Assembly (NCBI GenBank): GCA_020630095.1
Contig: JAHDCD010000005.1
Location: 81,358 to 145,357 of the forward strand
Direction of reading: 5' to 3'
Origin: Rickettsiales bacterium
Lineage (GTDB): Bacteria; Pseudomonadota; Alphaproteobacteria; Rickettsiales; UBA8987
DNA: 64,000 nucleotides
Part shown: piece after piece, positions 5,262-53,673 of the stretch
Layout of the letters: each line of letters opens with the position of its first letter
Numbering within the stretch: the first letter of the stretch is position 1
The notes under the pieces: generated by a model
Seen by the model: only the letters and a program-made list of their open reading frames with translations
What the model was told of the DNA's origin: nothing
Database searches by the model: none
Made by a program: the position numbers and the translations under genes

Positions 5262-5897
5262 TTAGTTTACTCTGTTAAAGTAGTTTGAAAGCTTAGTTAA
5301 TCTTTTACGAAGAGTAACGGGTAAGGCTTCATCTTTTAATAATTCACCAGTTAACTCGAACGCTTTTTCATTGTTCTTTTTGCTAATGAAGTAATCAATT
5401 TGAAGTTCTTTGGCAGAGTAGTGATAAGTAGCGTTATTATCTGTAGCTTTGCTTAAACGTTCTTGAAGAGTTGAATTGTCAGGGTCAGTGATAATTAATG
5501 CTTTAATGGCCTTAATTTGAGCTAGGTCTTTAATTTTAATATCACCGCTAGAGTTTATAACTTGATCGTAATAGTCAATTGCCTCAGGAATATTTAATTG
5601 AGTGATTTCTCTATCACCTAATTTAATTAAAGCTAAATCGCGGTAGCCAGAATTTGAGTTCTCAACTATTTCTTTTAAATCTTTCTCAGCAGCATTTTCA
5701 TTGAATGAAGTTTGGTAGAATTTAGCACCAACTTTTTGAGCCTGAGTATGAGTATATTGTTGGTAAAACTTAATACCAGCCGCCGCTGCGATTGATAAAA
5801 TACCAATTACAAGAGCGTATAACCCATATTTCTTAAATGTTTTTTCAAACTTTTCTCTGCGAATATCTTCTTGCGTTTCTTTTAAAATGTCTGCCAT
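5262..5897 (-). CDS. YfgM-like N-terminally anchored TPR-like protein
   Basis: It has a single N-terminal TM segment (YGLYALVIGILSIAAAAGIKFY) followed by a helical repeat region. It lies upstream of bamB. Confidence 0.5.
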   Translation of the reverse strand: MADILKETQEDIRREKFEKTFKKYGLYALVIGILSIAAAAGIKFYQQYTHTQAQKVGAKFYQTSFNENAAEKDLKEIVENSNSGYRDLALIKLGDREITQLNIPEAIDYYDQVINSSGDIKIKDLAQIKAIKALIITDPDNSTLQERLSKATDNNATYHYSAKELQIDYFISKKNNEKAFELTGELLKDEALPVTLRKRLTKLSNYFNRVN

Positions 5898-5933
5898 AGT
5901 AGTAATACGTGTTCTTAATCGTAATAATGTTAA

Positions 5934-6506
5934 GTGAAGAATTTAGGGCAAATATCGCTATTGTTAATAGTTTTTTTGAGCTTTAGTGCGCAAGCGGTAG
6001 AGTTATGCAAAAATGGCAAGCTTAGATGTCGTGAATTAATTAAGCATAGCAAGCCTGTTTATGGAGTTTGTATCAAAGAAACTTGTGCTAATTCTAAAAA
6101 GGGTGACTTTAGATGTAAGACAGGTTCTAACTCATGTAAAGGCGCGCGTAATAGCTATAATGCTTGTCTGGAAATTAACTGTGGTGCGCAGAAAGGTTGT
6201 GCCGTTGGTAAGAAAGAGTGTAAGGCTTTAGGCTTGAAATATTGGGATTGTGTTTCACAAGCCTGTTTGGGTTCAATTGATAGATACCTAACTATGGTGG
6301 GCAAAGTTAACAAAAAAGTTGCTCAGAAAAAGATTATAAAACAAAAGGATATAGCTAAACGCACCATTAGAACCAAGCGCGTAGGTGCTAATATTCGTAA
6401 TAATTTACGCTGTAAAAACCCAAGCGATACGTTATTTTGTACATCTACTAATATAGCTTCATGTAAGTGTGGTATTTATGGGAATCTGCCCATTTTTGTT
6501 AAGTAA
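5934..6506 (+). CDS. Secreted cysteine-rich, lysine-rich protein of unknown function
   Basis: GTG start and signal peptide (LLLIVFLSFSAQA). Many Cys residues occur in CK/CR contexts. Confidence 0.5.
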   Translation: MKNLGQISLLLIVFLSFSAQAVELCKNGKLRCRELIKHSKPVYGVCIKETCANSKKGDFRCKTGSNSCKGARNSYNACLEINCGAQKGCAVGKKECKALGLKYWDCVSQACLGSIDRYLTMVGKVNKKVAQKKIIKQKDIAKRTIRTKRVGANIRNNLRCKNPSDTLFCTSTNIASCKCGIYGNLPIFVK

Positions 6507-6542: not shown

Positions 6543-8522
6543 ATGAATTTTGAAGAGTATAAGGATCTATATAATCAATCTATTTCAAACCCTGATGAGT
6601 TTTGGTTAAGTCAAGCAAAGCAAAGGCTTATATGGGATAAAGAGCCATTACAAGCTGGTGAATATTCATTTAAGAAACCTGTTAACATTAAGTGGTTTGA
6701 AGATGGGCAGATGAATATCTGTTATAATGCGGTTGATAGGCATGCTTCAGCGACTCCAGATAAAACTGCTATTATTTGGGAGGGGGATTCACCGGATGTT
6801 GATGCCAAGGTTAGTTATGCGGAGTTGAAAGATGAAGTTTCTAAGTTTGCAAATGCGCTTAAAGAGCTTGGCGTTAAGAAAGGTAATGTTGTTACTATTT
6901 ATATGCCGATGATATTGGAATCTGCCTATGCGATGCTTGCTTGTGCAAGAATTGGTGCAGTTCATTCGGTTGTTTTTGGTGGTTTCTCGCCAGAATCTTT
7001 AAAAGATAGGGTGATTGATTGTGATTCTAAACTAATTATTACCGCAGATGAAGGTAGGCGAGGTGGTAAAAAAGTGCCGTTAATGGCTAATGCACTAGAT
7101 GCTGTTAAAGGCTTGGGTGATGTTGACATATTATGTATTGAGAATACTGGAGAATTAACCCAGATTTGTCATTCCCGCGCAGGCGGGAATCTCATTAGAG
7201 ATTTAAGAGAGATCCCCGATCAAGTCGGAGATGACAAGTCTTATAATATATTTTCTTATGATTCAGTCAAACAAACAGTTTCAAGTGATTGTGATTGCGA
7301 GGTTATGGATTCAGAGGACCCGTTATTTATTTTATATACGTCTGGGTCTACTGGTAAGCCAAAGGGAGTTCTACATTCTACAGCAGGTTATGCGTTATAT
7401 ACTTCGTTAACACATGAAACAGTATTTAATATTCAAAGTGATTCTATTTACTGGTGTACTGCAGATATTGGATGGATTACAGGTCATTCATATATAATTT
7501 ATGGTCCATTAATTAATGGCGCAACTAGTGTTATGTTTGAAGGTGTGCCAACGTATCCAGATGCTTCGCGTTGTTGGGATGTAGTAGATAAGCACAAAAT
7601 TACTGAATTTTATACCGCGCCAACGGCTATTCGCGCGCTTATGGCGGCAGGTGATGAGTTTGTAACTAAAAGTTCTAGAGAGTCTATTAGGGTTCTTGGT
7701 ACTGTGGGTGAACCGATTAATCCTGAAGCGTGGCGTTGGTACAATGAAATTGTGGGTCAGAGCAGGTGTGATATTGTTGATACTTATTGGCAAACAGAAA
7801 CTGGTGGCTTTTTAATTACTCCGCTAGCTGGCGCTACTCCCTTAGATGGCAAAGGCGGTTCTGCCACATTGCCGTTCTTTGGTATTAAGCCTGTTATTGT
7901 TGATAATGAAGGCAATGAATTAGAGGGTGAGGCTGAGGGTAATTTATGTATATCCGCTTCTTGGCCTAGTCAAATGCGTAGCGTTTATAAAGACCATGCA
8001 CGTTTTGAGGATACTTATTTTAGCCAGTTTGCGGGGTATTATTTTACTGGTGATGGTGCAAGGCGCGATGCGGATGGTTATTATTGGATAACTGGCCGTG
8101 TGGATGACGTATTAAATGTTTCGGGTCATAGGCTTGGTACAGCAGAAGTTGAAAGCGCGCTTGTATTGCATGAAGCTGTTGCGGAGGCCGCGGTGGTTGG
8201 TTTTCCGCATGATATAAAAGGGCAGGGCATATATTGTTATGTTCGTTTAATGGGTGGAGTTGGTCGCTCGGAAGAATTGCGTGCGGAGCTTGTTGCACAA
8301 GTTCGTAAGGAAATTGGGGCAATTGCTAAGCCGGATGTAATTAAATTTACACGTGATTTACCAAAAACGCGTTCTGGTAAGATTATGCGTAGAATATTGC
8401 GTAAGATTGCCGAAGGTGAACGTGATATTAATAATTTAGGTAATATATCTACCTTACTTAACCCAGACATTGTTCAAGAGCTCATAGAGGCCGCCTCTGA
8501 GAAAGAAGTCATGGCTTCATAA
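6543..8522 (+). CDS. acs: Acetyl-CoA synthetase (AMP-forming) carrying an in-frame 72-bp palindromic element
   Basis: Full-length match to the Acs family: [63 protein letters not shown]. The ATG at 6543 gives the canonical MNFEEYK N-terminus. Confidence 0.95.
7167..7238. repeat. Palindromic element family A, copy 1 (inside acs, in frame)
   Basis: TGTCAT-TCCCGC..GCGGGA-...-TCCCCGATCAAGTCGGAGA-TGACAAG. Near-identical copies lie at 20251-20324 and 27248-27318. Confidence 0.85.
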
Positions 8523-8580: not shown

Positions 8581-11500
8581 CTAGAAGCCGAAGCGTACGC
8601 CAGCATTAGCATCGAAACCTTCTTGGTCACCCATTACTATGTCACCACCAGCGAATAGTTCTAGGCTGTTAGACAGAGTAGCAGCTACTCTACCACCTAA
8701 GAAGTAAGTTAAGATACCATCTTCATCACCTTTGTAGTCCATGAAGCTTTGAGAACCTAAACCAGCAGGTGTACCATCATTTACGAAGTGTGCACCGCCG
8801 TAATTTCTGTCGCCGTTAAGGTCAAAACCAATACCAGCTCTACCTTGTGGAGTTAGGATAAAGTTCTCAGAGAATACCATTGGCTTAGAAAGCTTACCTT
8901 GTAACTTACCATATAAAGATGAAGTCTCAGACTCACCGAATTGTAAGTTAGCACCAGTAGCACCAGTTTCAGCAAAACCATCTAAAGTTACAGTAGTATA
9001 GTCTAATGAACCTTCACCAGTTAATAATAAGCCTCTACCAAGGTCATTCTTTAAACCAGCTGTTACGTTAAGGTTTGAAGTTGAACCTTCATGGTCGGCG
9101 TTAGCAATACCAGAATAAGTACCAAAGTTCATGTTACGAGTAGTGTTATACTCATTATCATATAAACCATATGAAGCACCTACGTATATATTGCCCATAT
9201 CGTAGTTACCATATACACCGTAACCAGTAGTATCTGATTCACCATCTAGATTAAGAACTGAAGTTTCGCCTGATAACATTGCTAAGAATGCACCAACACG
9301 TAATTCGTTATCGTAACCACCCATAATTGGTAAGTCAGCACCAACTACGAAACCAGATGTAGAAGTTTCTTGGTCTAAGTATGGAGAGTGGCCACCGAAG
9401 TCTCTTTCAGACATTAAGTATTTACCCCATACAGCGATACCTTCATCTTCAGTACAGTCACATAATAGACCGCCGTTAGTAGCATCCATAATATTGCCAG
9501 ATACTTGACGAGCTTCGTTTAAGCCTAAAGTTTTGTAACCATCATAAGTTTCAGGTCCAATTTGATCCATTGCATTTAATCTGTCAGCTACAGTTGGCAA
9601 GCCGTTGATCGCCGCAATTGGAATTAATGATGGGTGTGAAGTGTTACCTGGTACGTTAGCATCAAGAACATCATCAATATATTCTAAACCAGCATTTTGG
9701 TTAGGTGTACCACCTGGGTTCGATGCTAAGAAAGAATCAGGAGTGATATTTAAATAGTAGCTATCACCACGGTTTTGCTGCCATAATAATGGCTGACCTG
9801 CCGTTGGAGTAGATAGGTTTAAACTATCAGTAATTGTAGTGAAATCACCAGTAATGCCATTAGCATCATCAATTACTTTCCATTCGAAGCCACCAGCTGA
9901 ATAGTCAGTTGCATTACCATCAATTACTACGTCAATAGTTGAACCAGAAGCAATTGTAGTAGTACCATTTGTTACTGTTACTAGGTCAGCAATATTTTGT
10001 GGATTAACGCCGCCAGTCTGAACTAGCTCTTCAATATCAACATTGTAAGTTGAGCCAGATTGGAAATCTAGGTTACCATTGTTAATGTTTAAGTCACCGT
10101 AAGCTACAGTTGCACCGTTATTACCGGGTTGCAGTATACCACCGCTTTCAACTGTTAAAGTACCGCCATTTAGGTTAATTGCATCTGAGTTAAAGCCATC
10201 AGATTCAAGGATACCACCGTTTTCAACGTTCAACCCGTTAGTAGTGATTGTATTAACACCACCAGTTGTTTGCATTGAAACTCTACCAGAAACAATATCA
10301 AATTGTTCAGTAGTAATTGGAGCAAATACTTCTAAATCGTTAGTAGCAGTTGTAGCATTCGTATCTGCATTAATTAGATTAGTTGGGAATGCAGCATTAA
10401 TATCTGAAGGATTAGTTGGAAGGGCTGTATTATTTAATGTGCCGTCAACATCTACAGTTACTAATTCGAAGTCTGTTACAGTTTGCGTTAAGTTAATGTT
10501 ACCATCTGTGAAGATAATTTCATCGCCGTTAGCCACTGTATCACTACCTGTAATAGCTGCAGTTGGTGCATTTTCATCACCACCATCAATAGTACCGCCA
10601 GTTGGTAAGCCAATGCCACCAGTAATGATTACTGTATCGTCATCAACGCCTGTTTCAACGTTACCAAGTAATGTACCGCCACTTAGAACTACTAAGTCAT
10701 CATCTGTAGTTGTAGTAGAAGCAACACCTGGTGTAATATTATTCACTGTACCGCCAGTAACAATTACAGCATCGTCATCGATACCTGTTGTAATGTCGTC
10801 TACAATACCACCAGTAATAGTTGCAACGTCAACGTCAGTGCCAGAAGCACCAAGGTCTGCAGTTGTAGGAATACCTAGTTCAATATCACCAATTTGACCA
10901 CCAGTTACTAGGGCTGTATCGTCGTCAGTACCAGTTTCAATGTCTTCATTGTTAGTACCACCAGCAACAATAACAGTATCTACGTCTGATGTAGAGCCTG
11001 GAGAAGTTAAGCTAATAGTTTCAATAACTGTACCGCCATTACCATCAGGAGAGCCAATAGTACCGCCGTTAATAATTAAAGTATCGTCACCACCAGAAAG
11101 TAAGATATCACCTAAGATTTCTGCACCTGGATTAATTGTAACGATTTCGTTTGAATTTGTTGGTGTGCCATTTTCAGTTTGAGCATCAATTGCGATACCT
11201 TCACCTGGGTTTGAAGTACCTGGAGAAGTGTTACCTGGAATTAAAGTTCCTGAAACAGTTAATGTATTTGTACCAGTTCCGTTATGGAAATCAATTGCAT
11301 CATCAACTGTTGATTCAACCACAGCACCAGGGCCAATATCAATTGTATTTCCAGAGTTAAGTACGGTAATACCATCACCATCATCATTTATTACTTCACC
11401 ATCAATATCTAAGCCTTCAGAAGTTTGATCAAGAACTGCACCACATGGAGCAGAACCACCGGCGCCTACAGCACCAGTACCTGAAGTAACAGTTAAAGTA

Positions 11501-12315
11501 TCACAACCATTGATTGGGCCTTCTAGGTTAACAGTGTTACCTGCGCCAGCATCAATAATAATATTTTCCCAGTTTCTTAATTCTGCAGTAACTGTACCTG
11601 TACCTTGGAAAGTAAGATCGTCACCTGCGGTAGTGTTAACACCACCATCATATACTGGAGCAAATGTACCAGTTGATGTATCTAAAGTAATACCAGAAAG
11701 GTTAAATACTGCATCATCATCGCCTGCGCCAGTATCAATATCACCTAGGAATGTACCTGAATTGAATGTTAGAACATCAATATCTGCACCTGTGAAGATA
11801 TCATCATTCATAGTACCACCATTAAAAGTAACGATATCTGCGCCGCCTTCTAGGTCAATATCACCTGTGATATTTGAACCTGTATTAAATAACACAGTTT
11901 CAGCGCCAGAGCCACCATCGATCGCTGTTAACGGAGCACCACCGTTCGTGCCTTGGATAGTACCATTTAAATTTATTATATTAGCAGATGAATTTGGATC
12001 TAAAGAGATCGCATCTGCTGTACCGGTAGTAATGCTACCGTTTAAATTAACAGTATTACCACCTGAACCATGAAGTTCGATTACGTTTGTACCATCATTT
12101 CTGGATACATCCACGCCGCTATCTATATTTAGCGTAATCGAATTCGATGTTGTTGAGAAGCCGTCAGTATCAGTTGCGGAACATGTTACAGTGCTCCCTG
12201 ATGTTGCAGAATCTGGAGTACATTGTGCCAAAGCATTTGTGCTGGCACTAGTACTGCATAATAATGCTAATACGGCTAAAGTTGACTTTCTTACAAAATT
12301 TTTCGTTACGTTCAT
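8581..12315 (-). CDS. Autotransporter (type Va) with about 950-aa Gly/Thr/Asp-rich beta-helix-like passenger
   Basis: Signal peptide. The passenger repeats TG.DDD...TGG-type units. The C-terminal region of about 280 aa has alternating beta-strand patterns and ends in GVRFGF (terminal aromatic). Confidence 0.85.
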   Translation of the reverse strand: MNVTKNFVRKSTLAVLALLCSTSASTNALAQCTPDSATSGSTVTCSATDTDGFSTTSNSITLNIDSGVDVSRNDGTNVIELHGSGGNTVNLNGSITTGTADAISLDPNSSANIINLNGTIQGTNGGAPLTAIDGGSGAETVLFNTGSNITGDIDLEGGADIVTFNGGTMNDDIFTGADIDVLTFNSGTFLGDIDTGAGDDDAVFNLSGITLDTSTGTFAPVYDGGVNTTAGDDLTFQGTGTVTAELRNWENIIIDAGAGNTVNLEGPINGCDTLTVTSGTGAVGAGGSAPCGAVLDQTSEGLDIDGEVINDDGDGITVLNSGNTIDIGPGAVVESTVDDAIDFHNGTGTNTLTVSGTLIPGNTSPGTSNPGEGIAIDAQTENGTPTNSNEIVTINPGAEILGDILLSGGDDTLIINGGTIGSPDGNGGTVIETISLTSPGSTSDVDTVIVAGGTNNEDIETGTDDDTALVTGGQIGDIELGIPTTADLGASGTDVDVATITGGIVDDITTGIDDDAVIVTGGTVNNITPGVASTTTTDDDLVVLSGGTLLGNVETGVDDDTVIITGGIGLPTGGTIDGGDENAPTAAITGSDTVANGDEIIFTDGNINLTQTVTDFELVTVDVDGTLNNTALPTNPSDINAAFPTNLINADTNATTATNDLEVFAPITTEQFDIVSGRVSMQTTGGVNTITTNGLNVENGGILESDGFNSDAINLNGGTLTVESGGILQPGNNGATVAYGDLNINNGNLDFQSGSTYNVDIEELVQTGGVNPQNIADLVTVTNGTTTIASGSTIDVVIDGNATDYSAGGFEWKVIDDANGITGDFTTITDSLNLSTPTAGQPLLWQQNRGDSYYLNITPDSFLASNPGGTPNQNAGLEYIDDVLDANVPGNTSHPSLIPIAAINGLPTVADRLNAMDQIGPETYDGYKTLGLNEARQVSGNIMDATNGGLLCDCTEDEGIAVWGKYLMSERDFGGHSPYLDQETSTSGFVVGADLPIMGGYDNELRVGAFLAMLSGETSVLNLDGESDTTGYGVYGNYDMGNIYVGASYGLYDNEYNTTRNMNFGTYSGIANADHEGSTSNLNVTAGLKNDLGRGLLLTGEGSLDYTTVTLDGFAETGATGANLQFGESETSSLYGKLQGKLSKPMVFSENFILTPQGRAGIGFDLNGDRNYGGAHFVNDGTPAGLGSQSFMDYKGDEDGILTYFLGGRVAATLSNSLELFAGGDIVMGDQEGFDANAGVRFGF

Positions 12316-18441: not shown

Positions 18442-18828
18442 CTAATATGAGGTCCAATTATATACATGATAACGGCAATATGTGTATGCGTCTTTCCAAG
18501 CTCTGTAATAGTCTAAGTTATTGATTAACTTAGGATCTTGGTAAAATTTATAGGCATTTTTATATACCGAGTTACCATATGCGTTTAGTCCTGTTTCACA
18601 GCCATGAGTCCAGCCTTTCTCATATTCTGGGCTATAGTTTTCAAAGTTTGGTTTATTTAAACTCTTTGGTTTAGGTGAAATGCCTAGAATCTGTTTCCAG
18701 CTTAAATTACGTGAGTTTGTTTCACTTTGCCATTTAAGCATGTTTGAAAATTCACCACCACAAGAAGTAAGGGCAAAACTTATTAAACATATTTGTAATA
18801 AACGTTTCAAATTTATGATCCGCATCAT
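18442..18828 (-). CDS. Lipoprotein, paralog family member 2
   Basis: The ATG at 18828 is preceded by AGGTGG. Lipobox LTSC. Motifs GWTHGCETG and YYRAWKDAYTYC. Confidence 0.6.
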   Translation of the reverse strand: MMRIINLKRLLQICLISFALTSCGGEFSNMLKWQSETNSRNLSWKQILGISPKPKSLNKPNFENYSPEYEKGWTHGCETGLNAYGNSVYKNAYKFYQDPKLINNLDYYRAWKDAYTYCRYHVYNWTSY

Positions 18829-18900
18829 CCACCTGTAATAGATGGATGACAAAGGGAGGTTAATATAAATTCTAGTCTAGAAGGTTAATCCTTTTTCTTA

Positions 18901-18969
18901 TGTAAAATTGCCTAAGCAATTTTACATATATTCGCTACGTGGTGCAAAGCCAACTCAAGTTGGCTTTGA
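18901..18969. repeat. Bipartite-hairpin intergenic element, copy 1
   Basis: TGTAAAATTGC/GCAATTTTACA hairpin, then CGCTACG core, then AAAGCCAACT/AGTTGGCTTT hairpin. It is flanked by the 14-bp direct repeat CTAGAAGGTTAATC (18877 and 18978). Confidence 0.75.
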
Positions 18970-18977
18970 GAGATTAA

Positions 18978-19310
18978 CTAGAAGGTTAATCTCTTCTCAT
19001 ACTGCCAGATATAGCGTTGGCAATAGTCGAATGCGTCTTTCCAGCCTTTATAATAAACTCTGTTTTGTGCCTTAATTGGGTCTTGTTTCCAGCCAAAGAA
19101 GGGCTTGTAAATAATAGCAGTATTTGTGTGTACTCCTGTATGACAGCCATCTTTCCAACCTTCTAAGTATAAAGGCGGTAAGGTGGAGTTATCACCAGGA
19201 GGTCCTTCATACATCCACGCTTGCCAAGGAGGTCCTGGTTTTAGCCATGAGCATGAAGTTACCAATAATGCTGTCAATAATATGACAGATATGTTTCTTA
19301 TATTTGTCAT
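18978..19310 (-). CDS. Lipoprotein, paralog family member 3
   Basis: Lipobox LVTSC. Motifs GWKDGCHTG and YYKGWKDAFDYC. Confidence 0.65.
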   Translation of the reverse strand: MTNIRNISVILLTALLVTSCSWLKPGPPWQAWMYEGPPGDNSTLPPLYLEGWKDGCHTGVHTNTAIIYKPFFGWKQDPIKAQNRVYYKGWKDAFDYCQRYIWQYEKRLTF

Positions 19311-19313
19311 ATT

Positions 19314-19637
19314 TTATAGTTTCTTGTCTCTGTAGTTATCGGCAAAGAATGTGCAGTAGTAGAAAGCATCTTTCCATACTCGATAGTACATTGGGTTATC
19401 TTTTAGTTCAGGGTCTTGTCTCCAGCCATATGAGTTTGTACCTGCATAGAATCTGTCAACATATGAGCCATAACCTGTTATACAGCCATCTTTCCAACCC
19501 TTTCTATATTCAGGTGGGCCTGGTGGCGGGTCAAAGTCTAAAAGTGATGTTTTACGAAGGTCTAAAAGTCCGTCAGTGAACGCTCCTGAACATGATGTTA
19601 GGAGGAATGGGATTGATATGTAAATGAACCATTTCAT
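19314..19637 (-). CDS. Lipoprotein, paralog family member 4
   Basis: Lipobox LLTSC. Motifs GWKDGCITG and YYRVWKDAFYYC. Confidence 0.65.
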   Translation of the reverse strand: MKWFIYISIPFLLTSCSGAFTDGLLDLRKTSLLDFDPPPGPPEYRKGWKDGCITGYGSYVDRFYAGTNSYGWRQDPELKDNPMYYRVWKDAFYYCTFFADNYRDKKL

Positions 19638-19716
19638 TTTTTAAAACCTTCTTTTTTATTATTAACTTTTTAGCCTACGCCAAAGCTTTGGCTTTAGTTA
19701 ATAACCTATTTTTTTG

Positions 19717-19781
19717 GTAAAATTACTGGTGTAATTTTACATTTATTGCTACGCAATGCAAAACCAGCTTGAGCTGGTTTT
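19717..19781. repeat. Bipartite-hairpin intergenic element, copy 2
   Basis: GTAAAATTAC/GTAATTTTAC hairpin, then GCTACGC core, then AAAACCAGCT/AGCTGGTTTT hairpin. It is flanked by the 12-bp direct repeat TATTAACTTTTT (19660 and 19787). Confidence 0.75.
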
Positions 19782-19806
19782 ATGGTATTAACTTTTTGCT
19801 TATGTT

Positions 19807-20112
19807 TTAGTTAATACCATGCGAGAATACGAATACGCATGTATTGAAGCCAGTTTTGTAGCCTTTGTAATATTGCTGATTCTCAATGCCTTTTTCTACA
19901 TCGTAAGACATTCCATAGACTCTCATTACACTCTCGCCAATGATTCCTGAGCCAGTTTGACAACCATCACGGAAACCAACTGAAAAGTCATCATCGCCTT
20001 CTGGCATATCTACCAATGGAGGGCGTGGATTAAATACTCCCCAGCCTCTTCCAAATAAAGAACCACAGCTAGATAGAAGTAATATTACTAGACAACTCAA
20101 AACCACCTTCAT
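19807..20112 (-). CDS. Lipoprotein, paralog family member 5 (most divergent)
   Basis: Lipobox LLSSC. Motifs GFRDGCQTG and YYKGYKTGFNTC. Confidence 0.6.
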   Translation of the reverse strand: MKVVLSCLVILLLSSCGSLFGRGWGVFNPRPPLVDMPEGDDDFSVGFRDGCQTGSGIIGESVMRVYGMSYDVEKGIENQQYYKGYKTGFNTCVFVFSHGIN

Positions 20113-20221: not shown

Positions 20222-20361
20222 TATAGCAAATTAACTTGAAGTCTTAAGTATGTCATTCCCGCGAAAGCGGGAATCTCCTCTAAGATCTTTTTATGAGATC
20301 CCCGATCAAGTCGGGGATGACAAGAACAGAGATTCTCTAAACTTCAACTTAATTTGCTATA
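20222..20361. repeat. Composite nested palindrome: 21-bp outer inverted repeat enclosing family A copy 2 (20251-20324)
   Basis: Outer arms TATAGCAAATTAACTTGAAGT / ACTTCAACTTAATTTGCTATA match at 20 of 21 positions. The inner 74-bp element is near-identical to 7167-7238. Confidence 0.8.
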
Positions 20362-26485: not shown

Positions 26486-27253
26486 TTATTTCTTACTAAA
26501 TAGTGTAAAATATAGCCAGTAGGGTAGGAGTCTGATTAGGCGGATGATTTGACCGAATAGGAATGGAAAGCGGATTTCAAAGCGGTTAGATTTCATGCCT
26601 TTTAGGATTTTCTTAGCAGCTTGTTCTGCGCTGATACGCATGGGCATTTTGAAATTGTTTTTATCTGTTAAGCGAGTTTTTACAAAACCAGGGGAGACAA
26701 GTTGAACCTTTAAACCTTTCTTGCCGTATGCGCCTTTTAAGCCTTCAGTAAAATTAATAAGGGCGGCTTTTGATGCGCCATATGCTCGTGCCTCTAACCC
26801 TGTATAACCGGCAATTGATCCTACTATTACCACGTGCTTAAATATTCCGTTGTTTAGAAAATTATCTAGTGGGGTATCTAGGCATTTGAAGGCGCCGGTT
26901 AGATTTACATCTATTGTTTTAATGGCATCTTCTAAATCATATTTGGTAGTATCACCTGCTGGAGTATAAACGCCGGCATTATAAATTATAATATCGAAGC
27001 CGTTATGCTTGTTGAAAATGTGTGCGGCATCTGTTTCGTTTTGAACATCTAGCGGTTCGGCAGTAGCACCGATAGACTTTGCTAATTTAGATAGTTTATT
27101 TTCTGAACGGGCAGAGATTACTAATTGTTTGCACTCTTTAGAAAGTAATTTGGCTAGTTCTTCACCGATTCCGTATGAAGCACCGATGAGCCATACCTTC
27201 TTATGTTGCAGATAATTTTTGTTAGTGTTAAACATAAAAAATTGAGTTGTCAT
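26486..27253 (-). CDS. Short-chain dehydrogenase/reductase family oxidoreductase
   Basis: GASYGIGEE cofactor motif, NAG, and YGASKAAL catalytic Y-x3-K. The start codon at 27253-27251 lies inside repeat A copy 3, with an alternative ATG at 27235. Confidence 0.85.
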   Translation of the reverse strand: MTTQFFMFNTNKNYLQHKKVWLIGASYGIGEELAKLLSKECKQLVISARSENKLSKLAKSIGATAEPLDVQNETDAAHIFNKHNGFDIIIYNAGVYTPAGDTTKYDLEDAIKTIDVNLTGAFKCLDTPLDNFLNNGIFKHVVIVGSIAGYTGLEARAYGASKAALINFTEGLKGAYGKKGLKVQLVSPGFVKTRLTDKNNFKMPMRISAEQAAKKILKGMKSNRFEIRFPFLFGQIIRLIRLLPYWLYFTLFSKK

Positions 27254-27318
27254 TCATGCGAAAGCGGGAATCTATTGTGTGATCTTATTATAAGATCCCC
27301 GTCTGCGCGGGGATGACA
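27248..27318. repeat. Palindromic element family A, copy 3 (degenerate left hairpin, compensated right hairpin)
   Basis: TGTCATTCATGCGAAAGCGGGAATCT...AGATCCCCGTCTGCGCGGGGATGACA. Confidence 0.8.
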
Positions 27319-27331
27319 CCGCGAGGTAATT

Positions 27332-28375
27332 ATGAAGAAAGTTCTATATACTTTATTATTCTTAGTTTTGGGCGTATCGGGTTACGTTTTATTTTCAGAA
27401 AATTCAAAAACTAAAATTTCTAAGTCAATCGTGGCGAGTGCCTCTAAAGATTCATTCCAGCGTAAAATTTTAGTTCAAGCAATTAATAAATTAAGAAAAG
27501 ATCCTAGCTCTACTCATATGAAGATAATTACTTCTATTGAAGATGGTGAAATTTATAGGGCGATTAATTATTTGAAGAATGCGTATTCGAAGGATTCAGT
27601 TCAGCGTTCGGCGCGTGGTTTGGCTTTAGCTAATTTACATTTATATAATGGTGATTATGAACCGGCCATTAAGGAATATACTGAGATTTTATTAGATAAT
27701 AATGCCTCGCTAGATGCTCTTAATAACAGGGCGTATTGTTATAATAAATTGGGTAAGAAGGTTAATGAGTTGGATGATTATAATTCGATTCTTGATTTGC
27801 AGCCGTCTAATAAAATTGCGCGTAAAAATAGAGCGCAGTTGAATGACGAGTTGGGGAATCCATATGAAGCGATTGATGATTTAAACATTCTTATTGAAAA
27901 TGCAGGGGAGCTTAATTTAAGTGAGTTATTAATTATGCGTGCGCAGAGCTATAGTGCTATTGGTGTGTTTGATGATGCTACCGATGATATTGAGAAATCT
28001 ATTGAGCTAGATGGTGGTAACGCGACATCGTATATATCTATGGCGGGTAATATGACGCGTTTACAGCAATTTGAAGGGGCGCTTGAATATTATAATATGG
28101 CGGTGGAATTGGAGCCTAAGAATTATAATCATTATTATGCGCGTGGGTTGAATTATGCTTTTATGAATAATAAGGCAAAAGCGATTGATGATTTTACTTA
28201 TACGCTTAATTTGAGCCCGAACTATGTGCCTGCATTGCAGAATAGGGCGGTAACGTATCAGGCTATAGGCGATAAAGAATCTGCTATGGCGGATGTTAAT
28301 AGGATTTTATCTATCAATCCTACTTACCAAAATGCCATTAGTTTTAAGCAGTATTTAAGTGAAGGTTCTCGTTAG
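27332..28375 (+). CDS. Tetratricopeptide repeat protein, N-terminally anchored or secreted
   Basis: Hydrophobic N-terminus and multiple 34-aa TPR-like units (A..Y...L.L.P.N pattern). Confidence 0.75.
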   Translation: MKKVLYTLLFLVLGVSGYVLFSENSKTKISKSIVASASKDSFQRKILVQAINKLRKDPSSTHMKIITSIEDGEIYRAINYLKNAYSKDSVQRSARGLALANLHLYNGDYEPAIKEYTEILLDNNASLDALNNRAYCYNKLGKKVNELDDYNSILDLQPSNKIARKNRAQLNDELGNPYEAIDDLNILIENAGELNLSELLIMRAQSYSAIGVFDDATDDIEKSIELDGGNATSYISMAGNMTRLQQFEGALEYYNMAVELEPKNYNHYYARGLNYAFMNNKAKAIDDFTYTLNLSPNYVPALQNRAVTYQAIGDKESAMADVNRILSINPTYQNAISFKQYLSEGSR

Positions 28376-28432: not shown

Positions 28433-28509
<77 letters not shown>

Positions 28510-28819: not shown

Positions 28820-30406
28820 TTAAGCTGCTAGAATTTCATTTTGAATATTCCAGTCTAGTTCAGTAATTTGAGATAATTGCCTGAACGATAATTTTGCAGG
28901 AAGAGAGCCTCTGATTATAGAAGCCTGAATTTGAGGTGATAAAAAAGTCAAATTGAATAATTTTCTTAAATCTGAGTTATGAATATTCTTAGTTGCCGCA
29001 AACTCTTTAAGCATAAGATTTGAATCATAAAATTCTCTTTTCCATTTTTTAGCTTTAACTAATTTTGCTAAAATATAGTCTGATTTCGGGTTCAGCTCTT
29101 TTACATTATTTGTGGTAAAATCTTTAGGTGTAATATCACCTTTAACGGTAAGAATATTACCGTTCTCTAAAATGCTTAAGTTCCCCAACTTTTCAAAGTG
29201 AATATCGTTAGCTGCATGGTGGTAATTTTCTAATTCAGTATCTAATTTAGATCTATTAAACTTTACCTGAACCCAGCTGATATCAGCTACTATATCCAAA
29301 TCTATATTCAGCAAAATATCATTAAATTTCCTGTCATTATTTATATATCTCAGCTTTGGATTATTATGAGATGAGCAGATAATATCTTTAACCAATCGCT
29401 CAATTTTCTTGGCATTAACATTTGCTAATATTTTTGCTGATGAGCAAGATTTATAACCTTGCTTTAGCGCATGCTGAGAGGTGTAATAATAGTATTTCTT
29501 AGACCCTTTATTTGCATGAGTTCCTTGCATCAGATAATTATCAGTGGTTCTAATTAAGCCTTTAAGTAAATAATTATGCTTTGATGATTTATTATTTATC
29601 CCAGTTTGAGTTTTTAGCAATTTCTGCTGCACTTTCTCAAAGGTTTCATCAGCAATAATTGCTTCATGCTCACCTTCATAAACTTCTCCCTTATGACATA
29701 TTTTACCGTTTACCAATTTATTAGCGAGCAGCGTTTTAAGAGTAATCTTATTATATGAGTTGCCCTGAGATGTCTTGATATGCTCAATCTTTTCAAGTGT
29801 GTCAATAAAGCCTTTAGATTTCAAAAAGGTCTTAAAAATGAATATTAAGTCATCTTTATGTATCGAATTTATCAAAAGTTTTCTATCTTCAACTTTATAA
29901 CCTAGCGGCACAGGGCCACCCATCCACATTCCTTTCTTTTTTGATGCTGCGAACTTATCTCTAATTCTCTCAGATGTTACTTCACGTTCAAATTGAGCAA
30001 AGCTGAGTAGCACGTTTAGCGTCAATCGCCCCATTGAAGATGTGGTGTTAAATTGTTGAGTAATGGATACAAAACTTACTTCATGCTTATCAAACACCTC
30101 AATCATCTTAGCAAAATCTGCAAGTGCGCGTGTTAGCCGATCAACTTTATAAACAACCACTATATCAACCAACCCCGCCTCAATATCTTTCAATAGTTGC
30201 TGTAGCGCTGGCCTATTCATATGACCACCTGATATTCCACCATCATTATATTGAGTTTTAACCAACTGCCAGCCTTCATGCTTATGCGCCTGAACATATG
30301 CTTCACCAGCCTCTCTCTGTGCATCTAGGGAATTAAACTCCTGCTCTAATCCTTCCTCAGAAGATTTACGAGTATATATTGCACATTTAAGTTTCTTAAC
30401 TGCCAT
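28820..30406 (-). mobile_element. Large serine recombinase (integrase) CDS
   Basis: The ATG at 30406 is preceded by GGAGG. The N-terminal resolvase domain has AIYTRKSS, VVVYKVDRLTR and SFAQFERE. A long C-terminal recombinase/zinc-ribbon-like region follows. Confidence 0.9.
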
Positions 30407-30836
30407 TCTTACCTCCCCCAAGATTAAAGAATTTAGGCCCAGATTGATGCACTCCTGTAATATCTTTGGCGACTGCACTCAAGGATTTATAACTCTGATT
30501 ATTATACTCAAATTTAGATTTACCTTTATAAGTTACCTCAATTTGTATACCCTTATATCTCTTTCTAAGAATCTGCCCTTCGCTAAATAACTCGGTGTCT
30601 TTTTTAGTAGTTTTTAGAGATTCTTTATCACCTGGATCTTTCATTAGCCTTGCTATTTTCAAGCGTTCACTGTCCTTAAGCCCTCCATTTTCTCTTCGCT
30701 GCAACTCATATGCAATCTCTTGTCGTAGTAGCGATAATATTGATGGCGGTTTATAATTAAAATTAAGCTTAGACCAAATTAACTCCAGCTCTTCACGATT
30801 TATATTCTCAATTTCTGATATAAATATATTCTTCAT
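30396..30836 (-). CDS. DUF2924-like protein, usual partner of large serine recombinases
   Basis: ATG at 30836. It overlaps the recombinase start by 11 nt. The C-terminal YNNQSYKSLSAVAKDITGVHQSGPKFF matches my recollection of DUF2924. Confidence 0.65.
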   Translation of the reverse strand: MKNIFISEIENINREELELIWSKLNFNYKPPSILSLLRQEIAYELQRRENGGLKDSERLKIARLMKDPGDKESLKTTKKDTELFSEGQILRKRYKGIQIEVTYKGKSKFEYNNQSYKSLSAVAKDITGVHQSGPKFFNLGGGKNGS

Positions 30837-32967: not shown

Positions 32968-32997
32968 TGTCATTCGCCGACTTGATCGGCGAATCCA
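32968..32997. repeat. Half-size palindromic element related to families A/B
   Basis: TGTCAT-TCGCCGA-CTTGA-TCGGCGA-ATCCAG. It has the same GTCAT terminus and the ATCCAG of family B. Confidence 0.55.
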
Positions 32998-49241: not shown

Positions 49242-50330
49242 CTAGGCAGTTAGGAAATAGCGAGTTGCTTTTAGCTCTCCTTTTCTAATCATTATATTTT
49301 TAGACACTAAATCGTTCAAATCTCTGTTTGCTGTAGCAGGTGAGGTATTGGTAATTTTAATATACTTCTTAACGCTAACGCCATTTTCAAAGCCATTCAT
49401 ACCCGCTTTAAAAATAAGATTCAGCATCTTAACCTGCCTATCATTTAGGGTATCTTTATGCTTATTAAATATTTTTGCTTTCTTAAGTATAAACTCAATT
49501 GATGCGATAGAATTTTGCTGAGCCGCAATTACCATTTTACAAAAATATTCTAACCAATTTTGAATATCATTTGTTTTGTTCGCTTGTTCTAGTGACTCAT
49601 AATAGGCCTTTTTGTTGCTAAGGATTGTTTTTGAAACGGCAATCAGTGTGGGTTTGCCTAAAGATTTAGCCAAAGATTTCTCAATTAAAGCCCTGCCAAT
49701 TCTGCCATTACCATCTTCAAATGGGTGAATAAGCTCAAAATATAAATGGGCAATACCAGCGTGAATAATTGAATGCTCATTAGAGCTGTTGAAAAACTCA
49801 ATAAACTTAGACATCTCAGCTTGCATATTCTTCGATGGCGGCGCTTCATAATGCACTTTTGGCTTATCTATCCTGCCGGATATTATCTGCATCGGCTCAT
49901 CATGAAATCTATACTCGCCAATTGCATCAAGATCAGTCCTGCCATTCATAAGCATTTTATGCCATGAATATAATGTATTATGGCTTAGCGGTTGCTGAAA
50001 ATTATTATATAAATCCACCATCATCTGAGCGATTCCATTCTCTCGTGGGTAATTTTTAGAAATATTCGCCTTCAGGCCAAGATAACGCTTTATCGAAGAT
50101 TGCAAACTATCCCTATCTAATATCTCCCCCTCAATTTCAGATGTTGTAATAGCCTCATCAGATAAAAAGCCTATTTTTATATCTTCTTTTTCTTCATCGG
50201 ATAATGATTTGAGTACGCCAATAGATATTCCTGAAATATGGGCAAACTCATTGCAGTAGCCCTCAAGAGATTTCTTATCATAAGAAAACTTTCCCCAATC
50301 TGGTTTTTGCCACGCATATTTTTGAGTCAT
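49242..50330 (-). CDS. Fic family protein (class II, internal inhibitory helix) with C-terminal wHTH-like tail
   Basis: Active-site motif HPFEDGNGRIGR. The upstream TSEIEG fits the (S/T)xxxE(G/N) inhibitory motif. The ATG at 50330 gives MTQKYAW. Confidence 0.88.
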   Translation of the reverse strand: MTQKYAWQKPDWGKFSYDKKSLEGYCNEFAHISGISIGVLKSLSDEEKEDIKIGFLSDEAITTSEIEGEILDRDSLQSSIKRYLGLKANISKNYPRENGIAQMMVDLYNNFQQPLSHNTLYSWHKMLMNGRTDLDAIGEYRFHDEPMQIISGRIDKPKVHYEAPPSKNMQAEMSKFIEFFNSSNEHSIIHAGIAHLYFELIHPFEDGNGRIGRALIEKSLAKSLGKPTLIAVSKTILSNKKAYYESLEQANKTNDIQNWLEYFCKMVIAAQQNSIASIEFILKKAKIFNKHKDTLNDRQVKMLNLIFKAGMNGFENGVSVKKYIKITNTSPATANRDLNDLVSKNIMIRKGELKATRYFLTA

Positions 50331-50346
50331 GATAGATAAATATAAC

Positions 50347-50385
50347 ACTTATCTATCAAAAAGTAAAGGGATATGATAGATAAGT
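50347..50385. promoter_or_regulatory. 12-bp perfect inverted repeat immediately upstream of fic (candidate operator)
   Basis: ACTTATCTATCA-N15-TGATAGATAAGT. A third GATAGATAA copy lies at 50331-50339. Confidence 0.3.
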
Positions 50386-50737
50386 ACAAAGCTTATCCAT
50401 CATGAATATATTTTTAAGCCCTTCCGAGTAAATATTCATCTAATATGGTAGAAGCGGCACTACTTCTAAAAATTCTCTATTAATCAACGATCTAAACTTA
50501 CTGTAAAAACCTTCAATTTGCAGATAGCTTTCTATTGCCATTTTAGAAGCTAGAAACACTAAAATTCCCATTAAATTTGCTATATTTCCCTATAGATTTT
50601 CCAATTAGACAAAATAGAGGCTTAAGAATTAAGTTAATATTTTCGTTGTTTTTGGAATTAATTTAGTTAATAGATGCTACTAGTTCAGTAGAGTAGCATC
50701 TACTGCACCATTCTTTGAAAATTACACATTATTTATT

Positions 50738-52114: not shown

Positions 52115-52184
52115 ATAGTAAATCCAAATTTAAATGCTACCGCGTTGTAAATTAGAATTTACTACATACAACAATAACAATATT

Positions 52185-52775
52185 ATGACTATTACATTAC
52201 CTCCATTACCTTACGCAGATAACGCGCTAGAGCCTCACATTTCAGCAGAAACAATTAGTTTTCACTATGGCAAGCATCACAATGCTTACGTGGTTAACTT
52301 AAATAAGTTAATTGAAGGTACTGCGGATGAAGGTAAGAGTTTAGAGGATATTGTTAAGTCGTCTACTGGTGGTGTGTTTAATAATGCTGCACAAGTTTGG
52401 AACCATACTTTTTATTGGAATTCTATGGCACCTAATGGTGGCGGTGCGCCAAGTGGTGCAATTGCAGATAAGATTAATGCGGATTTCGGTTCTTTCGAGA
52501 AGTTTGCTGAAGAGTTTAAAGCTGCGGGTGCGACTCAGTTTGGTTCTGGTTGGGCATGGCTTGTTGTTAATGCTGATGGCAAATTAGAAATTCGTAAAAC
52601 ACCTAACGCGGAAACGCCATTAACAGAAGCAGGTGTTACGCCAATTATCACTATGGATGTTTGGGAGCATGCTTACTATTTAGACTATCAAAATAAGCGC
52701 CCTGAATATATGGGTGTATTCCTTGATAAATTAGTTAACTGGGATTTCGCTAATGAGAATTTAGCTAAGGCTTAA
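52185..52775 (+). CDS. sodB: Fe/Mn superoxide dismutase
   Basis: The ATG at 52185 gives MTITLPPLPYADNALEPHIS. Also FNNAAQVWNHTFYW and DVWEHAYYLDYQN. Confidence 0.93.
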   Translation: MTITLPPLPYADNALEPHISAETISFHYGKHHNAYVVNLNKLIEGTADEGKSLEDIVKSSTGGVFNNAAQVWNHTFYWNSMAPNGGGAPSGAIADKINADFGSFEKFAEEFKAAGATQFGSGWAWLVVNADGKLEIRKTPNAETPLTEAGVTPIITMDVWEHAYYLDYQNKRPEYMGVFLDKLVNWDFANENLAKA

Positions 52776-52782
52776 CTAGCCG

Positions 52783-52890
52783 CGTCATTGCGAGGAGCGT
52801 AATGAAATGAAGCGACGAAGCAATCCAGAAACCTATTTGCTTGGCAAGATCACTGGATTGCTTCGCTCCTTTCAGTCGCTCGCAATGACG
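52783..52890. repeat. Palindromic element family B, copy 1 (108 bp)
   Basis: CGTCATTGCGAGGAGCG...GAAGCAATCCAG ... CTGGATTGCTTCGCTCC...CTCGCAATGACG. It resembles Rickettsia-type palindromic elements. Confidence 0.85.
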
Positions 52891-53673
52891 GTTATTATTT
52901 TATTTCCTGTAAACGCGTATTCTGCAGCATGGCTTATAGATAAAGGTAAGAGCCAGAATGTTTATTCATTATCTTTCTATTCATCGGATCATTTTTATGA
53001 CCAACAAGGTAATAGGATAAATATTGCCGACAGATACGATAAGCGATCATTTTCAAACCTATATGAATATGGCTTAACAGATGGTTTAACTGTTGGGTTT
53101 AATTATAATTTTGATTGGGCAAGTCAAGGTACAGAGGAGGAGCTAGGATATAGCGGTTCAGAATTTTTTTTAAGATCATATCTATATGAGGGTGAGGCTG
53201 GAGTTTTATCTGTACAGCCATTGATAAAATTGCCAGCGTTTGAGGCGCCTAATATTAATTTGCCATTATCTAATAATGAAATTGAAGCAGAAATACGTTT
53301 GCTTTACGGCAAGGGTTATAAGCATGATGGGGTGAATAATTTTATCAATGCGGAAGTGGCATATAGGCGTGCGATATATGATCATATTGATGGAGTTAAG
53401 AATAAGAGCGAACTTATATTGGATTTATCAGCGGGTTTTAGGGCGAATAAGAATCGTATGGTTTTAGCGCAAGTTTTTAGTAAATATTCACTATCGGATT
53501 TTGATAATTTATCTTTATTCCAGAGTAATAACCATCATGTGAAGGCGCAATTAAGTTATGTGTTTAAGGTAACGCGCAATAACTCAATTCAAATAGGTGG
53601 CTATGCAGATATTTACGCGCGTAATACAGGTAAGGGAAAAGGTTTTTTTGTTAGTTTATGGAGAGAATTTTAA
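52885..53673 (+). CDS. Outer-membrane beta-barrel-like protein of unknown function
   Basis: The signal-like MTVIILFPVNAYSA starts at the ATG within the element terminus (alternative ATG at 52807, inside the element). Alternating hydrophobic strands and a C-terminal ...SLWREF. Confidence 0.55.
   Translation: MTVIILFPVNAYSAAWLIDKGKSQNVYSLSFYSSDHFYDQQGNRINIADRYDKRSFSNLYEYGLTDGLTVGFNYNFDWASQGTEEELGYSGSEFFLRSYLYEGEAGVLSVQPLIKLPAFEAPNINLPLSNNEIEAEIRLLYGKGYKHDGVNNFINAEVAYRRAIYDHIDGVKNKSELILDLSAGFRANKNRMVLAQVFSKYSLSDFDNLSLFQSNNHHVKAQLSYVFKVTRNNSIQIGGYADIYARNTGKGKGFFVSLWREF

Follow-up and report, generated by a model that had tools for sequence, protein, structure and literature searches.

The closest described relatives of the element studied here are the CGTC-type repetitive extragenic palindromes (REPs). 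A CGTC-1 REP is defined by a CGTC tag (often TGTC, with CCTC allowed), an 8-bp stem beginning with AT, a 4-nucleotide (nt) loop and a CCA tail (Di Nocera, De Gregorio and Rocco 2013, BMC Genomics 14:522, PMC3733652). Such repeats occur mostly as inverted dimers and mainly in Alphaproteobacteria, with five phyla listed, and CGTC-1 has been equated with the dRS3 repeats of Neisseria and with the Rickettsia palindromic element RPE-6 of R. conorii (PMC3733652). Intragenic in-frame CGTC copies are also known, and dimers or grouped repeats encoding 20-30 amino acids make up over half of these (PMC3733652). Here we analyse a 64-kb window (the whole stretch of 64,000 nt taken from contig JAHDCD010000005.1 of a Rickettsiales bacterium, assembly GCA_020630095.1) in which acs, the gene for AMP-forming acetyl-CoA synthetase (Acs), contains a 72-nt inverted dimer of such hairpins. 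In-frame dimers of CGTC REPs or Rickettsia palindromic elements (RPEs) in housekeeping genes are already documented, and the acs insert is a further one: a well-supported case of selfish hairpin DNA translated within a housekeeping enzyme. The gene and the parts of the element are as follows.

6543-8522, plus strand: acs, AMP-forming acetyl-CoA synthetase, 659 amino acids, an intact open reading frame (ORF) with the element inside.
7167-7238, plus strand: inverted dimer of CGTC-type REP hairpins, resembling the REP doublets known as REPINs, 72 nt, encoding Acs residues 209-232.
7167-7192, plus strand: left module, with tag TGTC at 7167-7170, 8-bp stem ATTCCCGC/GCGGGAAT, 4-nt loop GCAG and tail CT.
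7193-7209, plus strand: AT-rich spacer between the modules, poorly conserved among copies.
7210-7236, minus strand: right module, inverted, with tag TGTC, stem ATCTCCGA/TCGGGGAT and a 5-nt loop.

An earlier sequence-only reading of this DNA had reported a palindromic element of 72 bp, or 24 codons, at 7167-7238, free of stops and starting on a codon boundary of acs, and its sequence, coordinates and translation are all as claimed. The segment reads TGTCATTCCCGCGCAGGCGGGAATCT...GAGATCCCCGATCAAGTCGGAGATGACAAG and is composed of two modules of ~26 nt, inverted around a spacer of ~17 nt with their tags outward; each module has an unpaired TGTC tag, a GC-rich 8-bp stem with AT first, a loop of 4-5 nt and a short tail. 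All 8/8 pairs form in the left stem, and the right stem has one mismatch (7/8 pairs). Because the tags of the two modules point outward, the whole unit can fold as one long hairpin. The RNA fold of the element with short flanks reaches -34 kcal/mol (z = -5.6 against dinucleotide shuffles, with 0/200 as stable), and its outer stems pair the two ends of the element in the manner of a REPIN (Bertels and Rainey 2011), so that the palindromic nature proposed for it holds as well. No curated Rfam family matches the element at gathering thresholds (a tRNA is the only Rfam match in the window), and NCBIfam gave no match to the insert peptide at E <= 10, hence none to any RPE domain models that this library may contain.

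The terminal tag and the 8-bp stem and 4-nt loop of the left arm are those of CGTC-1, and within the window and the sequencing-depth data the unit is repeated, mostly as inverted dimers. The acs element thus shares with CGTC-1 REPs the tag, the AT-first 8-bp stem, the 4-nt loop, a short tail, the inverted dimer and the occurrence of an in-frame genic copy. It differs in its tail, which is CTC, CTA or CTT in the window as against the consensus CCA that is usual in the metagenome loci described below, in its right arm, where the 5-nt loop is CGTC-2-like, and in its uncultured, alga-associated host. The core of the left module (7171-7191) is identical to the 21-mer ATTCCCGCGCAGGCGGGAATC, the master sequence of the Neisseria REPs and REPINs, of which one N. 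meningitidis strain holds 241 copies (bioRxiv 10.1101/2021.07.10.451892). The Neisseria dRS3/NIME repeats, which Bertels and Rainey treat as REPINs, have the same 21-nt core, and their inverted doublets likewise fold into hairpins; however, they build large intergenic mosaics linked to a Group-2 REP-associated tyrosine transposase (RAYT), whereas the dimers here are isolated, one of them is genic and no RAYT is in view.

With the RPEs of Ogata et al. (especially RPE-6 and RPE-4), the acs element has in common that it is palindromic, inserted in frame in a housekeeping gene of an alphaproteobacterium and tolerated in a loop. According to the literature it is homologous, and not merely analogous, to RPE-6, a relation that runs through the equation with CGTC-1 and not through a direct RPE-6 alignment. 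In contrast to the RPEs, its host is not Rickettsia and the insert matches no curated NCBIfam model. RPE-1 elements are longer, at 100-150 bp.

The module extends well beyond this genome. A cross-phylum scan for TGTCATYCCCG-N5-9-CGGGRATCT, with one genome per species, gave at least 120 loci in Patescibacteria, Bacteroidota, Fibrobacterota, Cloacimonadota, Spirochaetota and all proteobacterial classes, among them 'Ca. Tisiphia', Coxiellaceae and metagenome-assembled genomes (MAGs) of Rickettsiales, and many of these loci are two-armed like the acs element. The range differs from that of the original description in that Patescibacteria, Fibrobacterota, Cloacimonadota and other phyla lie beyond the five given there. 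Two loci from a 'Ca. Tisiphia' endosymbiont (Rickettsiaceae; L027 and L040) hold CGTC-1 dimers that are nearly spacerless (TGTCATTCCCGCGTAGGCGGGAATCTAGATACCTGCTTTCGCAGGTATGACA), several per 8 kb, showing that the family is also plentiful in Rickettsiaceae outside Rickettsia proper. In an Ignavibacterium album MAG, the modules form head-to-tail tandems with a 36-nt period inside a long ORF (CHSRESGNLFFL repeated; L054, ~5789-5900).

We then compared the acs product with its relatives. The 24-residue block is missing from 20/20 of the nearest Acs homologues, which read ...VLVVKRTGGxIxWxxxRDxWY...; the window Acs has matching spacing once the 24 residues are removed. In the alignment the insertion falls between ...ENTGELTQ(I) and SYNIFSYD, in agreement with its earlier placement between the NTGELTQ and YNIFSYD segments, upstream of a conserved motif. 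An AlphaFold2 model built on the 20-homologue alignment (mean pLDDT 74.7, pTM 0.77) places insert residues 209-232 inside its sole long low-confidence segment, 203-231 (pLDDT 31-45), between a strand at 195-199 and a strand at 236-238 followed by a helix at 239-243; outside the insert, superposition of the model on Salmonella Acs structures gives TM ~0.8. The tolerance of such inserts in surface loops, cited for RPEs in the sequence-only reading, fits this model, in which the insert is predicted to be a disordered loop of an otherwise normal Acs fold. The insertion site would accordingly be a variable loop beside a beta-strand of the N-terminal domain of Acs, and the 24 extra residues, which are probably disordered, would leave the fold undisturbed.

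A second genome bears on the same region. The acs of GCA_030429625.1, a related alphaproteobacterium, encodes a homologue (P0035) with 30 extra residues of its own on the other side of the same strand; P0035 lies on a 379-kb NCBI contig that also bears one of the closest enolases. This acs contains a 90-nt in-frame inverted CGTC-type dimer (L206, ~10644-10733), ~12 residues from the window site, the stem of which differs from that of the window element: CGTC followed by ATTCTGCG...CGCAGAAT and CCA in one arm, and TGG followed by ATCCTGTG...CACAGGAT and GACA in the other. The right arm of this dimer also holds a nested GAATGACAGTGTCATT palindrome. Two different dimers in two lineages at sites ~12 residues apart point to a permissive surface region and are hard to reconcile with an ancestral loop; the second, independent hit in a related lineage marks the loop as permissive.

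The notion that the 24 residues are an ancestral or lineage-specific Acs loop, with the intergenic copies as mere look-alikes, draws on the fact that the nearest homologue is 66% identical, so that no close relative can show the empty site. We consider it very unlikely. Besides the absence of the block from all 20 homologues and the different dimer nearby in the acs of the relative, an intergenic copy at a distance of 13 kb has 85% identity to this DNA, a repeat with the identical core is present in many phyla, and the hairpin fold of the element stands at z = -5.6. Moreover, the 21-nt core is identical to the Neisseria repeat while Acs is at most 66% identical to any homologue, which implies that the insert is much younger than the divergence of acs. 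What speaks against an insertion is that there is neither an empty-site allele nor a close relative, so that the event can be neither dated nor polarised at the nucleotide level. We put the probability at roughly 0.85 that the 72-bp segment is a non-coding, mobile CGTC-REP dimer that landed in acs and not an ancestral part of the enzyme, and the dimer would have inserted after the window lineage split from all sampled relatives. The absence of the block from the homologues, the CGTC-1 geometry and the multi-copy nature of the repeat all support the earlier proposal of RPE-like selfish DNA inserted in frame.

The window contains further copies of the dimer, a singleton module and a second CGTC-tagged palindrome.

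20251-20324, plus strand: intergenic copy of 74 nt with 85% identity to the one in acs, between two minus-strand genes.
27248-27318, minus strand: intergenic copy of 71 nt with 68-72% identity to the one in acs, in a divergent gap of 78 nt that it fills.
32969-32994, plus strand: singleton module of the CGTC superfamily, TGTCATTCGCCGACTTGATCGGCGAATCCA, with 8/8 stem pairs and a weak nhmmer match (E = 0.21).
52783-52890, no strand assigned: a second, different CGTC-tagged palindrome, CGTCATTGCGAGGAGC...GCTCGCAATGACG, with 31-nt arms.

Searching the 64-kb window with nhmmer returned three copies of the element (E = 1e-21, 7e-22 and 4e-18) and nothing else convincing, and its first 26 nt, with up to 3 mismatches, occur at 3 sites where 0.00 are expected. 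Counted with a strict GC-rich detector, because the general detector used further below yields false positives in AT-rich DNA, the window has 3 dimers and 1 singleton of the module per 64 kb. The two intergenic copies had been called nearly identical to the acs copy; both exist, and the term is apt for their conserved arms, but the identities of 85% and 68-72% and the divergent spacer do not bear out so close a match overall. Alignment of the three copies shows conservation of the arms and not of the spacer, and each copy carries TGTC outermost in both arms. The copy at 20251-20324 includes a module with a perfect stem (20298-20321) and lies just upstream of a cluster of lipoprotein-like genes (18442-20112). 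The copy at 27248-27318 has an outward ATGACA terminus, and the earliest ATG available to a short-chain dehydrogenase gene (26486-27253, minus strand) lies there; the Pfam domain of the gene product begins at residue 19, with an internal Met at residue 7. As this copy fills nearly the whole 78-nt gap to a TPR gene (27332-28375), it may carry or displace both promoters.

Sequencing depth rises from ~6x in the acs flanks to 50-115x inside the acs element, which indicates that the repeat is multi-copy in the sample. We also considered whether the element could be an assembly artefact, either a repeat-induced misjoin or a collapsed repeat. The Logan unitigs do break inside the element, as it is a repeat; nevertheless, in three runs one unitig holds the 5' half of acs with the first 29 nt of the element and another holds the whole element with the 3' half, so that both gene-element junctions are represented, and the two halves of acs continue each other in frame and are colinear with Acs. 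The three runs, assembled independently, derive from one 'algae metagenome' sample, and none of the assemblies skips the element. An artefact is therefore highly improbable. The Logan contigs of 2-4.5 kb that match genes at both ends of the window hold no further modules. The window has a GC content of 36.9%, and its enolase assigns the host to the Alphaproteobacteria: the top match is 74% identical, and many of the named matches come from 'Rickettsiales bacterium' MAGs.

The reading frame helps to explain why this copy is found inside a gene. A single module is open in 5/6 frames. Of the three copies in the window, only that in acs has a length divisible by three (72 nt; the other two measure 74 and 71 nt), and the sole frame in which it is open is that of acs. 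Among 63 dimers in the fetched loci, in most of which the spacer is 20-29 nt, length modulo 3 is flat (25/19/19). Because dimer lengths show no bias towards multiples of three, in-frame genic copies are what selection leaves and not a built-in property of the repeat; the acs copy may have survived by being a multiple of three long, open in the acs frame and seated in a tolerant loop. In other phyla, too, unrelated proteins contain in-frame members of the family: this reading frame, CHSR[AE][GS]GNL ... GDD, recurs within long ORFs, in Patescibacteria (L026) and in a membrane protein (L082), and single modules lie in one ORF resembling a P-type ATPase (L017) and one resembling a mutase (L023). 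No target-site duplication was detected, as 2-nt direct repeats flank 4/63 dimers with 3.9 expected, and none stands beside the acs copy. A classical miniature inverted-repeat transposable element, derived from an insertion sequence (IS) with a DDE transposase, was ruled out on this ground: terminal inverted repeats are present but the duplication is absent.

The host gene has an intact ORF, which runs from ATG at 6543 to the stop at 8522 (the longest version opens at TTG 6507), and the product has the ACAS_N, AMP-binding and AMP-binding_C domains in Pfam and matches Salmonella Acs (PDB 2p2f) at E = 4e-236. The closest homologues by BLASTP are 63-66% identical, and the core motifs, the active-site Lys motif included, are invariant in the alignment of the 20 best homologues. 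With these domains, the core motifs and the Acs fold, the protein belongs to the AMP-forming acetyl-CoA synthetases, and on the strength of its sequence Acs with the insert is most likely still active. The alternative of a young pseudogene, inactivated by the insertion and still open, appears unlikely to us. A stable hairpin in the mRNA could hinder translation, the stem mismatch in the right arm could be simple decay, and, weighing against an expressed enzyme, no RNA run was found to hold the acs region. Yet the 659-codon frame is unbroken and its catalytic motifs are invariant, the insert lies in a variable loop that is modelled as disordered and outside the core, a second lineage tolerates a 30-residue insert alongside, and RPE-bearing proteins are reported in the literature as expressed. 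The hairpin of the acs copy is weaker than that of the nearest intergenic copy (-26.8 versus -33.3 kcal/mol, with one stem mismatch), a difference that may reflect either selection or decay.

Co-option of the acs copy, whether by tuning acs expression through an mRNA structure or by giving the protein a new functional loop, seems to us unlikely. REPs have been proposed as RNA elements, and two other palindromes in the window supply possible ATG starts of downstream genes. However, nothing in the data requires such a role, the spacer is unconserved between copies and the insert is predicted to be disordered.

Because the element encodes nothing and makes no target-site duplication, it must be moved in trans, and the mobilising enzyme is presumably encoded elsewhere in the genome. 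Which enzyme moves CGTC-type REPs is a question that dates back to at least 2013 and bears on the origin of RPE-like protein inserts. These repeats "lack a dedicated transposase" and, unlike GTAG REPs, are not associated with transposase genes (PMC3733652).

A candidate emerged from the loci selected for the module. Several modules there are directly followed by an ORF of ~95 amino acids with a Pfam GIY-YIG match (E = 1.5e-18 to 2.5e-13, well over the gathering score). Eight such small GIY-YIG ORFs occur in the at least 120 loci (~0.9 Mb), and 5/8 lie within 100 nt of a module. Residues Y7, Y18-G20, R28 and E65 are invariant (alignment A3), as in the GIY-YIG superfamily (PF01541). The structures closest to the flanked protein are the UPF0213 proteins 1zg2 and 1ywl, of unknown function, with weak matches to I-TevI, UvrC and SLX1. 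It thus resembles the stand-alone nucleases of the UPF0213/YhbQ/COG2827 type in its Pfam domain and top PDB matches, but the flanked subfamily differs in a conserved C-terminal tail, KKWxRxWKxxLIExxNPxWxDL, and in its hairpin-flanked genes.

We approached the association from the protein side with 80 metagenome loci picked solely for encoding a relative of the ~95-residue GIY-YIG protein. An earlier strict detector had given flanking of ~55%, and its apparent negatives showed variant stems and loops; a general detector with controls was therefore adopted, requiring GTCA[TC], a stem of 7 nt in which no more than 1 mismatch is allowed, a 3-35-nt loop and an outward tag within 150 nt of the gene. 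Outward modules lie upstream of the GIY-YIG gene in 48/72 loci, downstream in 47/74 and on both sides in 36/66, with a median gap of ~22-26 nt that separates the module from the coding region. In control windows taken from these loci at a distance of more than 400 nt the count was 3/243 (1.2%), and in shuffled flanks 17/1440; the per-side rate of 64-67% is thus >50-fold above the 1.2% control. Stems vary between loci, yet the two flanks of one gene match each other more closely than flanks from different loci do (a mean of 6.77 versus 5.45 of 8 positions, reached in 0/5000 permutations). The termini on either side of one GIY-YIG homologue (L073) are of the GTCATTGCGAGG type, as in the window palindrome at 52783-52890. 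In another locus (L056), runs of half-modules (GGCTCGGGAATGACGAT repeated) lie outside the hairpins that flank the GIY-YIG gene.

In Methylotenera, an identical 94-residue GIY-YIG protein (P0332) is always encoded between glyQ and glyS, and the flanking modules are kept in 10/10 loci, always as CGTCATTCCCGCGTAGGCGGGAATCT ... TGGATTCCCGCCTACGCGGGAATGACG. The gene is hence a fixed, vertically inherited, hairpin-flanked resident, as RAYT genes are. An actively hopping 'mini-IS' cassette was dropped from consideration, P0332 being always at this single place. The arrangement recalls the REPIN-RAYT system, or REPtron, in which a non-coding hairpin doublet without target-site duplication accompanies a resident, single-site, vertically inherited gene flanked by its own hairpins; the differences lie in the product of the flanked gene, a GIY-YIG nuclease where the REPIN-RAYT system has an HUH/Y1 transposase, and in the tag, CGTC in place of GTAG.

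The module flanking of the GIY-YIG gene is a direct observation; that the nuclease moves the hairpins is a tentative proposal, to which we give somewhat less than even odds. Our preferred candidate for the mover is accordingly this ~95-residue stand-alone GIY-YIG nuclease of the UPF0213/YhbQ type, its gene usually situated between outward-tagged modules as RAYTs are between REPs; by recognising and cutting the hairpins or cruciforms, such a nuclease would drive their copying. CGTC REPs in general (dRS3, RPE-4/RPE-6 and the acs insert) might then be non-autonomous partners of widespread GIY-YIG nucleases, in a counterpart of the REPIN-RAYT system, a generalisation we hold just as tentatively. 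Several points count against it. Neither a GIY-YIG nor a RAYT gene lies in the 64-kb window; flanking is an association and does not demonstrate catalysis; the 80 loci are not phylogenetically independent; the Methylotenera gene sits at one fixed place, its own movement not seen; and Bertels and Rainey tie the identical 21-mer to the Neisseria RAYT, setting RAYT integrity against REPIN decay (bioRxiv 10.1101/2021.07.10.451892).

This last point introduces the main competitor, in which a Group-2 RAYT (an IS200/IS605-like Y1 transposase) moves the element as a REPIN and the GIY-YIG genes are bystanders or a nuclease lodged in REP dimers. The same master 21-mer in Neisseria, where REPIN decay tracks RAYT frameshifts (bioRxiv 10.1101/2021.07.10.451892), the REPIN architecture of the acs element and the missing target-site duplication, which fits single-strand Y1 transposition, are all in keeping with it. 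By contrast, jackhmmer seeded with E. coli RayT found no RAYT homologue in the at least 120 module loci or the window, and the tyrosine-transposase genes checked in many CGTC-positive species were in no case flanked by CGTC repeats (PMC3733652). The tag, too, is CGTC/TGTC where RAYT-associated REPs typically have GTAG, and GIY-YIG genes are flanked far above control rates. We regard a RAYT as an unlikely mover, though by no means a negligible one; the remaining probability, beyond GIY-YIG and RAYT, belongs to another enzyme or to an inactive relic population.

The full-text literature open without subscription yielded no relevant published link between GIY-YIG proteins and extragenic palindromic repeats, REPIN/RAYT or RPEs, and no published function was found for the flanked subfamily; judging by title and abstract, none of the UPF0213/COG2827/YhbQ papers retrieved concerns repeats. 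A protein search for a Neisseria GIY-YIG homologue returned solely Methylophilaceae among its best 120 matches. The GIY-YIG association makes the question of mobilisation, as posed in the literature, experimentally testable; if the partnership with the nuclease is true, it would name the enzyme called missing in 2013 and amount to a new way of moving DNA in bacteria.

Other features of the window accompany these repeats. The second palindrome (52783-52890) follows directly on the stop (52775) of the ORF at 52134-52775, which encodes a putative superoxide dismutase, and overlaps the N-terminus of the ORF at 52807-53673; its terminal ATGACG holds the ATG of a signal-peptide-like start, MTVIILFPVNAYSA. 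Immediately upstream of acs lies a Cys-rich, secreted ORF of 190 amino acids (5934-6506, plus strand) with no Pfam match, the stop of which abuts the acs ORF, and immediately downstream an autotransporter of 1244 amino acids (8581-12315, minus strand; beta-domain E = 2e-27). The lipoprotein-like cluster at 18442-20112 (minus strand) is formed by four tandem paralogous small ORFs of 101-136 amino acids with the common motif ...GWKDGC...YY+GWKDA..YC; the ORF at 18978-19310, the sole one of the four scanned, has no Pfam match. A tRNA gene (28433-28506) stands next to a large serine recombinase of 552 amino acids with Resolvase and Recombinase domains (28820-30478, minus strand), a pairing that usually marks the edge of an integrated island or prophage. 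Finally, ~330 nt upstream of the enolase gene there is an AT-rich palindrome with 32-nt arms (TCATGATAGATAAATATAACACTTATCTATCA / TGATAGATAAGT...) at 50327-50405, which has no relation to the CGTC elements.

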